A stretch of DNA of 64,000 nucleotides from an uncultured Chloroflexia bacterium (GTDB lineage: Bacteria > Chloroflexota > Dehalococcoidia > DSTF01 > JACRBR01), in NCBI GenBank assembly GCA_963736015.1, contig CAVTNG010000009.1, forward strand, positions 247,760-311,759, read 5' to 3'. Shown in pieces: positions 37,418 through 39,734 of the stretch. Numbering within the stretch: the stretch's first letter is position 1; each line of letters begins with the position of its first letter. A program made the translations under genes and the position numbers. A model generated the notes under the pieces. That model saw nothing but the letters and a program-made list of their open reading frames with translations. It ran no database searches and was not told the origin of the DNA.

Positions 37418-38555
37418 TCAGATCAGGAGCAGGAAGATCGGGACGACGAAGATGGCGCCGAGGAAGATCGCGAAGCCCCGCTTGTCACGCGTTGCGAAGT
37501 GGGCCATACGGAGGATGAACGAGCGGTACGGCCTGTAGAGGAACACGAGCACGATGAGTGAGATCGAGGCACCGGTCACCATCTCGACGAATACGATGGT
37601 GAACGCCCGCGGCGTGTCCAGCAGCAGCGCCGCGAACAGCGTATCGATCCACGTGGCGATGTTGGCGCCCATGACGTAGGGAATGATGTTGTCGCGCTTC
37701 ACATAGCCCTTCAGCGTCAGGGGCACGAGGATCGTGACGGAGAGCGCGACCGACAGCGTCATGCCGGTGACGAGCAGGCCGAAACCGAACATCGAGTAGC
37801 GCATGTGCAGGATGCGCGACAGCCGCTCGAAGCGCGGGCCGGGCTGTTCGAGGTTGGGCAGGACGCGGTCGAACAGGCTGAAACTGAGCAGCAGCGCGCC
37901 GATGCCGATGGCGAACATCACCAGCTCCGGCAAGTGGGCGGACATGCGCTTGATCATCGGGTCGTAGACGACGTTGACGACCGATCGCACGGCGCCGGGG
38001 CTGCCGAATGCGCACGCCGTCGAACCAGCCTTCGCGCAAGATGAGCTGACCGAGAGGGATGACGGGCGCCCACAGCGTGAACGCAGTGAGCAGGCGACGA
38101 CACCGACGTAGAGCCCGTCCGGGTTGCGCTTACCGGTGACCCAGTAGATGAAGCCGACGAGCAGGACGATGAAGGACGCGCCCATACGAGAGCCGTTGAT
38201 CATCGCGAACGTCTCTGTGTCTGTGAGGACGCCCTTCGAGAACAGCGTCAGCGCGATGGCGGCGACGGGCGAGCCGCTGAGTACGATATACGAGCCGAGC
38301 CAGCCGAACCCGACGATGTTGAGCGTGCCGTGGGCGCCGAAGTCGTTCAGGATCGGCTTCAGGCCGCTGGCGCCCGACTTCAGCGCTGGAGCGCGAAGAC
38401 GAAGACGGCGAGCGCGAGGAGGATGTAGACGATGCGAAGGCCGACGGCGCTGCCCACGCGACCACAGCGGAGGGCGGGACGTGAACGCTGGCCTCGGCCT
38501 CGTTCGCGCGGAGCTGCGGCGCGGCCGCCTCGTTCGCGCCCCCGCCGGCTGACAT
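37418..38555 (-). CDS. Na+/Pi-cotransporter-family membrane protein (frameshifted)
   Basis: SGSPVAA, GSRMGASF, LSVALS, YVMGANIATW; start ATG overlaps the sat stop (TAATG). Confidence 0.72.
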
Positions 38556-39734
38556 TACGACACCTTCGCCCGCTCCGCCGCGATCAGCACGCGCGCGACT
38601 TCGGGGCGCGAGAACTCGTGCGGCGGCTCGATGCCCTGTGACAGGAACTCGCGGACCTGCGTGCCCGAGAGCGACACGCGCTCTTCGCTGCCGTGCGGGC
38701 ACGTCTTGCTGGAGGCCATGCCCTCGCAACGCTTGCAGAAGAAGGTGTGCTCGAAGAACAGCGGCGTGATGCCCAGCGCCTGCGGGTCGAATTCATCGAA
38801 GATGAGCTGGGCGTCGTACGTGCCGTAGTAGTTGCCGACGCCGGCGTGATCGCGGCCGACGATGAAGTGCGAGCAGCCGTAATTCTTGCGCATGATGGCG
38901 TGGAAGATGGCCTCGCGCGGGCCTGCGTAGCGCATGGCGGCGGGGAGCACCGAGAGCAAGCACGCGGTCCTTCGGGTAGTAGTTCTCGAGCAGGACGCGG
39001 TAGCAGTCCATGCGCACTTCGGCGGGGATGTCGTCTGACTTGGTGTCGCCGACAAGCGGGTGCAGGAGAAGCCCATCGGTGATCTCGAGCGCCGCCTTCT
39101 GGATGTACTCGTGTGCGCGGTGGACGGGGTTGCGGGTCTGGAAGCCGACGACGCGCTTCCAGCCGCGCTCGGCGAACTTCGCGCGCGTCTGCGCCGGGTC
39201 GAGGCGGTACTCCGGAAACGTGAGGTTCTCCGGCCGCGCGAAACACCTGTACAGGGCCGCCGATGAGGATGTCGTCCTGCGCGTAGACGGCGGCGACGCC
39301 GGGGTGCTTGTCCTCGGTGGTGCGATAGACCTTGTCGGCTTCGTACTGCCTTGTCGTAGTCGAAGTCTTCTTCGACGGTCATGATCGCAAGCGGCGTGCC
39401 GTCGGGGTCGGTGAGGGCGATCTCGCCCTGGAACCGGTTGGCCTGCTCCTTCGAAACGCCGAGCGTGACGGGGATCGACCACGGCAGTCCGCCGGGGAGG
39501 TGCATGGTGTCGACGACGCTCTTGTACTGCGCGGCGCCCATGAAGCCATCGAGCGGCGAGAAGCCGCCGTTGGCGAGCAGCTCGAGGTCGGAGAGCTCGC
39601 GTGAGTTGAGACGGCGCGAGGGGAGGCCCTGCGACTTCTCTTCGAGTGCGCGCGCGTCGTCGCCCGTGACCTCGCGCGGGTTGAGGCTTGCCTCCGTGCG
39701 GCGCGATCAATCCTTCGGGGGTGGTGTCTGCCAT
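38555..39734 (-). CDS. sat: Sulfate adenylyltransferase (frameshifted)
   Basis: [49 protein letters not shown]. Confidence 0.96.

Follow-up and report, generated by a model that had tools for sequence, protein, structure and literature searches.

A divergent SLC34/PNaS-family transporter translationally coupled to ATP sulfurylase is a candidate sulfate importer in Dehalococcoidia

The last gene of a sulfate-assimilation operon in Dehalococcoidia encodes a divergent member of the SLC34/PNaS transporters which, judged from its sequence and genomic surroundings, is probably a sulfate importer. We describe this gene in a 64,000-nucleotide stretch of DNA (the whole of which is termed the window) from a Dehalococcoidia metagenome-assembled genome (G000; 13 contigs, 51% complete). 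We propose that a secondary carrier of the SLC34/PNaS fold would bring sulfate into the cell for use by Sat, CysH and Sir, with the look-alikes selenate or thiosulfate probably carried as well. An initial annotation of this DNA had suggested that this branch of the family imports sulfate or another sulfur oxyanion, and this is supported by conserved gene context and by co-occurrence, from which we infer both the substrate and the direction of transport. The Dehalococcoidia concerned have a complete assimilation pathway and almost no SulP or ABC importer, and the transporter would fill this missing step.

In the window, sir, cysH, cysC, sat and the transporter gene follow one another in a single direction (Table 1), an order that was proposed initially and is confirmed by Pfam and NCBIfam matches together with the junction sequences. 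The start of cysH overlaps the stop of sir (ATGA), and the TAA stop of sat (38557-38555, minus strand) shares its final base with the ATG of the transporter gene (38555-38553), just 5' of which is an SD-like AAGGTG. The TAATG overlap reported earlier (38557-38553) is therefore present as described, and the transporter would be co-translated with sat. Its description as the last gene is correct for the transcription unit but not for the sulfur cluster, which resumes beyond a PAS histidine kinase gene with rrf2, cysK and genes of the moeB/thiS type and reaches about position 30478. Conservation of the system does not extend to this kinase, as rrf2 is located within 1.5 kb downstream of the transporter gene in 55 of 68 relatives (cysK in 54 of 68). 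A kinase insertion is also seen at loci L027 and L098, and a PAS kinase gene directly follows sat in genomes G002 and G019, where the transporter has been lost. The region from rrf2 through cysK and moeB/thiS to a second cysK/M-like gene (~30478-34454) constitutes a cysteine-synthesis cluster with a sulfur-carrier branch and the same operator; the cysK orthologue scores over the TIGR01139 cut-off. Searches of the window sulfur cluster for SulP, Sbp/CysTWA and TSUP genes found none, in keeping with the earlier statement that no SulP, CysPUWA or TSUP transporter is in the cluster. The CysH in the window has a motif of the APS-reductase type despite the presence of cysC in the operon, which suggests that PAPS may be made for sulfation as well. 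Divergent from sir are genes for an ArsR-like regulator and an SRPBCC (AHSA1) protein (43192-45004, plus strand), and a 261-aa open reading frame opposite them (43069-43854, minus strand) has no family match and is probably a shadow of these two genes.

Table 1. Positions of the operon, its neighbors and its putative regulatory sites in the window.
Feature	Position	Strand	Basis or remark
sir, ferredoxin-type sulfite/nitrite reductase, first operon gene	41247..43020	-	PF01077, PF03460
cysH, APS/PAPS reductase	40490..41250	-	PF01507; CC..CxxC Fe-S motif (APS-reductase type)
cysC, APS kinase	39829..40379	-	PF01583, TIGR00455
sat, ATP sulfurylase, frameshifted in assembly	38555..39734	-	PF01747, PF14306
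TAATG overlap of sat stop and transporter start, translational coupling	38553..38557	-	near-overlap conserved in orthologues
Transporter gene, divergent SLC34/PNaS fold (PF02690)	37418..38555	-	TGA stop 37420-37418; orthologues ~378 aa
PAS histidine kinase (multi-PAS), between transporter gene and rrf2	34663..37170	-	Pfam
rrf2, CymR-like regulator	34018..34454	-	tblastn; orthologue NF047409
Putative Rrf2/CymR-type operator, over -10 box of sir promoter	43055..43081	-	38.9 bits, best genome match
Second copy of putative operator, 5' of rrf2	34481..34507	-	37.4 bits

The position of the transporter gene is highly conserved. Where more than 600 bp of upstream sequence is available (73 GTDB loci), the gene directly 5' of it always belongs to the sulfate pathway (sat in 68, cysN in four and cysH in one). 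In essentially every orthologous locus that contains sat, the transporter start is in frame at about -14 to +16 nt from the sat stop, and thus the coupling of the two genes is not a chance arrangement. Loci of the Tepidiformales type (L185, L189, L194) are instead organised as cysH-cysC-cysD-cysN-transporter, and the transporter start is located at the stop of cysN. The association is thus retained even where Sat is replaced by an ATP sulfurylase unrelated to it. Co-occurrence gives a similar picture. Across 151 evenly sampled Dehalococcoidia genomes, the transporter is present in 26, all of which contain cysH, and in none of the 74 genomes that lack cysH; at least 21 of these carriers have the gene in a sulfur cluster and three have it standing alone. 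In a second set of 41 relatives, all 27 carriers contain cysH, the transporter is absent from all nine genomes that have no good cysH, and five cysH-positive genomes do not have it. One unpublished genome (G021) is among these relatives and provides one locus, with no claim resting on it alone. We attach no P-value to these counts, as related genomes are not independent samples. The enrichment near sulfur genes that would be expected of a sulfur oxyanion carrier is therefore observed, and it extends to other clades, where homologues are found inside a cys operon or beside cysTWA.

Regulation of the operon also appears to be shared with cysteine synthesis. A 27-bp motif, ATTGTTGA-n12-ACTTT, is conserved 5' of sir and of rrf2 in relatives, and a matrix built from 91 such sites locates both copies in the window, with the -35 element of the sir promoter (TTGACT) at 43107-43102. 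A scan of G000 with this matrix gave three sites above 20 bits, while shuffled-sequence controls gave none above 15 bits. The third, weaker site (24.6 bits; G000:C4:79449, minus strand) is located 5' of a gene for an apparent FmdB-type zinc-ribbon protein; the scan gave no site at the TSUP genes of this genome. Among named equivalogs the Rrf2 orthologue is nearest to CymR (NF047409), with a score of 121.7 bits that is below the cut-off of 195. The Rrf2 protein presumably binds the 27-bp motif, and the transporter gene would be co-transcribed from the sir promoter under control of this CymR-like repressor.

Other candidate sulfate importers are scarce in these organisms with the exception of TSUP proteins. 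A SulP protein scores over cut-off in one of the 41 relatives and Sbp in none, and a search of five good genomes for PiT, YeeE, DASS and EI24-type CysZ proteins found none. TSUP genes are present in all 41 relatives in one to six copies, regardless of cysH, and could be the main alternative route for sulfate. In three operons without the transporter (L262, L263, L267) a TSUP gene is located 5' of cysH, which looks like one permease replacing another. Four further genomes (G002, G019, G025, G033) keep the operon without the transporter, and a search for a replacement permease beside sat found none. These four operons, together with the 51 of 77 cysH-positive Dehalococcoidia genomes that lack the gene, indicate that the transporter is dispensable. 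The transporter itself has no Pfam or NCBIfam match to the SulT ABC, SulP, DASS, CysP/PiT or TSUP/CysZ families. As with operon-encoded permeases of the CysP or CysZ-like kind, it has both a conserved position in a sulfate-assimilation operon and co-occurrence with that pathway.

The only Pfam match of the transporter is PF02690, at 28.5 bits for the window fragment against a cut-off of 29.1, and this cut-off is exceeded in 10 of the 41 relatives and in several representatives of the wider subfamily. Scores to NCBIfam models are all below their cut-offs (NF037997, 19.6-38.3 bits versus 50; TIGR00704, 16-36 versus 210; TIGR01013, 16-17 versus 306). The only solved relative found by sequence is SLC34A2 (profile E 8.4e-6). 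An inverted internal repeat places the two halves in register over the motifs, with a weak score (E 0.0099, probability 4%), and in a structural model (pLDDT 86.5) paired helices break at both motifs (77-91/94-106 and 252-266/269-281). Two fold searches did not list SLC34A2 and had TRAP/DASS-type carriers as best rows at a middling Z of 8-10; we do not use them as evidence. Alignment to SLC34A2 is direct for repeat 2 and is made through the internal repeat for repeat 1, for which a search with that half alone found no solved relative; residues of TM3 and TM6 are placed by symmetry only and are less sure. Residue numbers of the binding site are those of the L022 protein.

In the cryo-EM structure of SLC34A2, phosphate is held by two QSSS motifs together with Thr192 and Thr465, there are four Na+ sites, and the Q158A and T192A variants are non-functional (bioRxiv 10.64898/2026.05.25.727688). 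In 43 orthologues of the transporter and about 100 representatives, the QSSS motifs are replaced by (M/L)SGS and (M/L)SVS, such that the four Ser side-chain donors are kept while both Gln and the backbone-only positions have changed. The equivalent of T465 is kept (T301, in 96 of 106 rows), but that of T192 is Ala (95 of 106). The set of Na1-Na4 ligands (N189, N196, H220, D221, N224, N462, T468, H491, N495) is largely not retained: N189 of Na3 is Arg in 104 of 106 rows, N196 is Val, T468 of Na4 is Asp in 96 of 106 and the equivalents of H220 and D221, placed by repeat symmetry, are lost, with N462 being kept. Going by these defining residues, the transporter is a PNaS/SLC34 homologue and not a Na+/phosphate symporter. 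Coupling to Na+ is doubtful because most of the Na+ ligands are gone; thus the initial assignment to the Na+/Pi-cotransporter family is upheld as to PF02690 homology but is questionable as to Na+. Binding of a tetrahedral oxyanion has very probably been retained. Sulfate only accepts hydrogen bonds, and by general chemistry it would plausibly fit a pocket with one hydroxyl fewer and an added positive charge, although D304 could argue the opposite. In the mechanism that we propose, two hairpins would form the oxyanion pocket from helix dipoles, backbone amides, S93, S95, S268, S270 and T301, and R123 would permanently stand in for the structural Na3 ion. The Na1 and Na2 sites would be lost, leaving one cation site (T301, D304 and often E324) for H+ or Na+. 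A single cation site would offer little driving force for the accumulation of a divalent anion in the face of the membrane potential.

A profile search for the subfamily gave 293 representatives (50% identity clusters) at E <= 1e-30 from Chloroflexota, Planctomycetota, Thermoplasmata, Methanonatronarchaeales and haloarchaea, and 4301 of 8000 scored proteins at E <= 1e-10, a figure that may extend to remoter members of the family. One homologue of 611 aa (P0166) has a weak N-terminal nucleotidyltransferase match, and another (P0124) has a long C-terminal extension without a family. In other clades the homologue is located within sir-cysH-homologue-cbiX-cysG-sat/cysC, with overlaps on both of its sides, within homologue-cbiX-cysD-cysNC, and at the head of homologue-usp-rrf2-oscA-like-porin-sbp-cysT-cysW-cysA. 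The Dehalococcoidia proteins form one clade of the tree (support 98) and a second cys-operon group (P0183/P0199) is placed elsewhere; the tree suggests that the second group was recruited independently, with an AU test not rejecting the joining of the two groups (p = 0.118).

The alternative that survives best, which we regard as unlikely, is that the protein carries a different sulfur oxyanion or works in a different mode, be it thiosulfate or sulfite import, export of surplus sulfite, or anion exchange (for example, sulfate in and phosphate or sulfite out). Loss of the Na1 and Na2 ligands with Arg in a Na+ site parallels the DASS exchangers, as Arg159 and His392 of LaINDY are proposed to be Na+ surrogates (PMC7553777). 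Some copies are also located after sir or cysH, or before rrf2-cysK, and not after sat (L254, L150, L251), and the Thermoplasmata context is tauE-homologue-usp. However, Na3 of SLC34A2 is thought to be structural and not transported, so its replacement need not mean exchange. Furthermore, the gene is coupled to the sulfate-activating step in 72 of 73 loci, and every carrier checked has an ATP sulfurylase (Sat or CysD). At L198 a second copy of the transporter gene forms a unit with cysC and sat, next to which no reductase gene was found; such a unit needs only sulfate.

It is improbable that the protein still transports phosphate and is retained in the operon to deal with the phosphate derived from PPi and PAP. 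Phosphate transport is the only characterised activity of the family, the four Ser donors and the T465 equivalent are kept, and the near-invariant D304 could accept a phosphate proton. In addition, one Anaerolineae-like clade has pstSCAB-like genes, then an Sbp-like gene, then the homologue and usp. Against this, neither Gln of the QSSS motifs nor the T192 equivalent is retained, and the Q158A and T192A variants of SLC34A2 do not function; PstC is encoded elsewhere in all five good genomes searched, and regulation looks CymR-like. Moreover, the "PstS" of the Anaerolineae-like clade no longer has the hydroxyl residues that hold phosphate (SGSTS to SGAWA, GSS to GAG and GSGT to SCGA), so there is no intact phosphate context in any locus seen, and the intervening Sbp-like protein has the sulfate-binding protein 1SBP as its best solved match (E 1e-32). 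The Pst-like importer, the orphan Sbp-like protein, the transporter and usp form a conserved operon (L059:1723-8513, L061, L069, L071, L079, L083) that is possibly a multi-route sulfate uptake module. A predicted complex of the Anaerolineae-type transporter with its neighboring Sbp-like protein scored 0.00, which weighs neither way.

More improbable still is a broad or different anion carrier (e.g., for molybdate/tungstate or an organic anion) that is normally paired with Usp and has only a secondary place in the sulfur operon. Beyond the Dehalococcoidia, the homologue is found most often next to usp (L206-L212, L204, L221-L240), and in Chloroflexia, many Anaerolineae, some Planctomycetota and each of the seven haloarchaeal loci its only neighbors are usp or unrelated genes. 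These usp-only homologues have the same site residues as the sat-linked clade, which, together with the three solitary Dehalococcoidia copies, is a counterpoint to sulfate import. The Sbp-like partner also has Tyr at the position of Trp192 of Sbp, and weak ModA matches. However, dependence on cysH is strict in Dehalococcoidia, sulfur contexts are repeated in other clades, and no molybdenum or organic-acid context is present in any locus read. The distribution of usp suggests that Usp is a regulatory partner that the sat-linked clade has lost.

As assembled, the transporter gene is broken into several frames, with shifts near 38466-38457, 38385, 38093 and 38009. The initial placement of the gene at 37418-38557 is thus correct as to its start within the sat stop and its end at 37418, but it is not one open reading frame. 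In the window sat, cysC, cysH, sir, rrf2, cysK and moeB are likewise frameshifted, as are ligA and clpP of G000, and rpoB of G000 (C5:27909-31531) is split into nine pieces; consequently, the breaks are best read as assembly indels and not as pseudogenisation. Single-base indels are frequent across the G000 assembly, and its completeness value may partly reflect them. The closest loci are from Dehalococcoidia, and a dead window copy, which four frameshifts within 1138 bp might imply, is the least credible reading of all given that every neighboring gene is shifted alike, that intact orthologues exist at ~74% identity and that the true path has no in-frame stops.

If the Dehalococcoidia protein does import sulfate, the few families of bacterial sulfate importers known to date would be joined by a new one, and thousands of "Na+/phosphate symporter" annotations would be corrected. 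Together with the 2026 SLC34A2 structures, it would offer a natural experiment on how phosphate is discriminated from sulfate and how many Na+ sites the fold needs. A broader and tentative proposal, to which we give somewhat less than an even chance, is that the whole of this undescribed subfamily, defined by an SGSP / GSR / SVS / Asp signature, consists of sulfate carriers in which a fixed Arg replaces most Na+ sites. It would then be a new prokaryotic sulfate importer family and, within the medically important SLC34/PNaS family of transporters, the first branch with a substrate other than phosphate, one that may be independent of Na+ or work by exchange. Our literature search, which left subscription journals mostly outside its reach, found no report linking a PF02690/PNaS protein to sulfate.

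Comparison with known systems shows both similarities and clear differences. The transporter shares with SLC34/PNaS proteins (TC 2.A.58, PF02690; zebrafish SLC34A2, PDB 9Z60) the two-repeat hairpin architecture, the Ser donors and the T465 equivalent, but differs in its altered QSSS motifs, in Arg for N189, in the loss of T192, N196, H220 and D221, in Asp for T468 and in its sulfur operon. DASS exchangers (LaINDY; PMC7553777) and SLC13 Na+/sulfate carriers are also hairpin-type elevator carriers, with a basic side chain replacing Na+ in the exchangers, but they belong to another family (PF00939), their match to the transporter in structure is middling (Z 8-9, rmsd 6-7 A), and the Arg of the transporter is at a site thought to be structural. 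TSUP/CysZ proteins (PF01925) are encoded at the equivalent place in the operon in some Dehalococcoidia without the transporter but are an unrelated family of 250 aa. B. subtilis CysP is a member of the phosphate-carrier (PiT) family that serves as a sulfate permease and is encoded in the sat operon (PMC5840216), but it is from an unrelated family (PF01384) that was not found in five relatives searched. Reviewed prokaryotic sulfate importers comprise five families that do not include PNaS, and some genomes fit none of them well (PMC5840216). By analogy, the transporter would work like B. subtilis CysP but from another fold family, one that is outside this surveyed list of sulfate importers.
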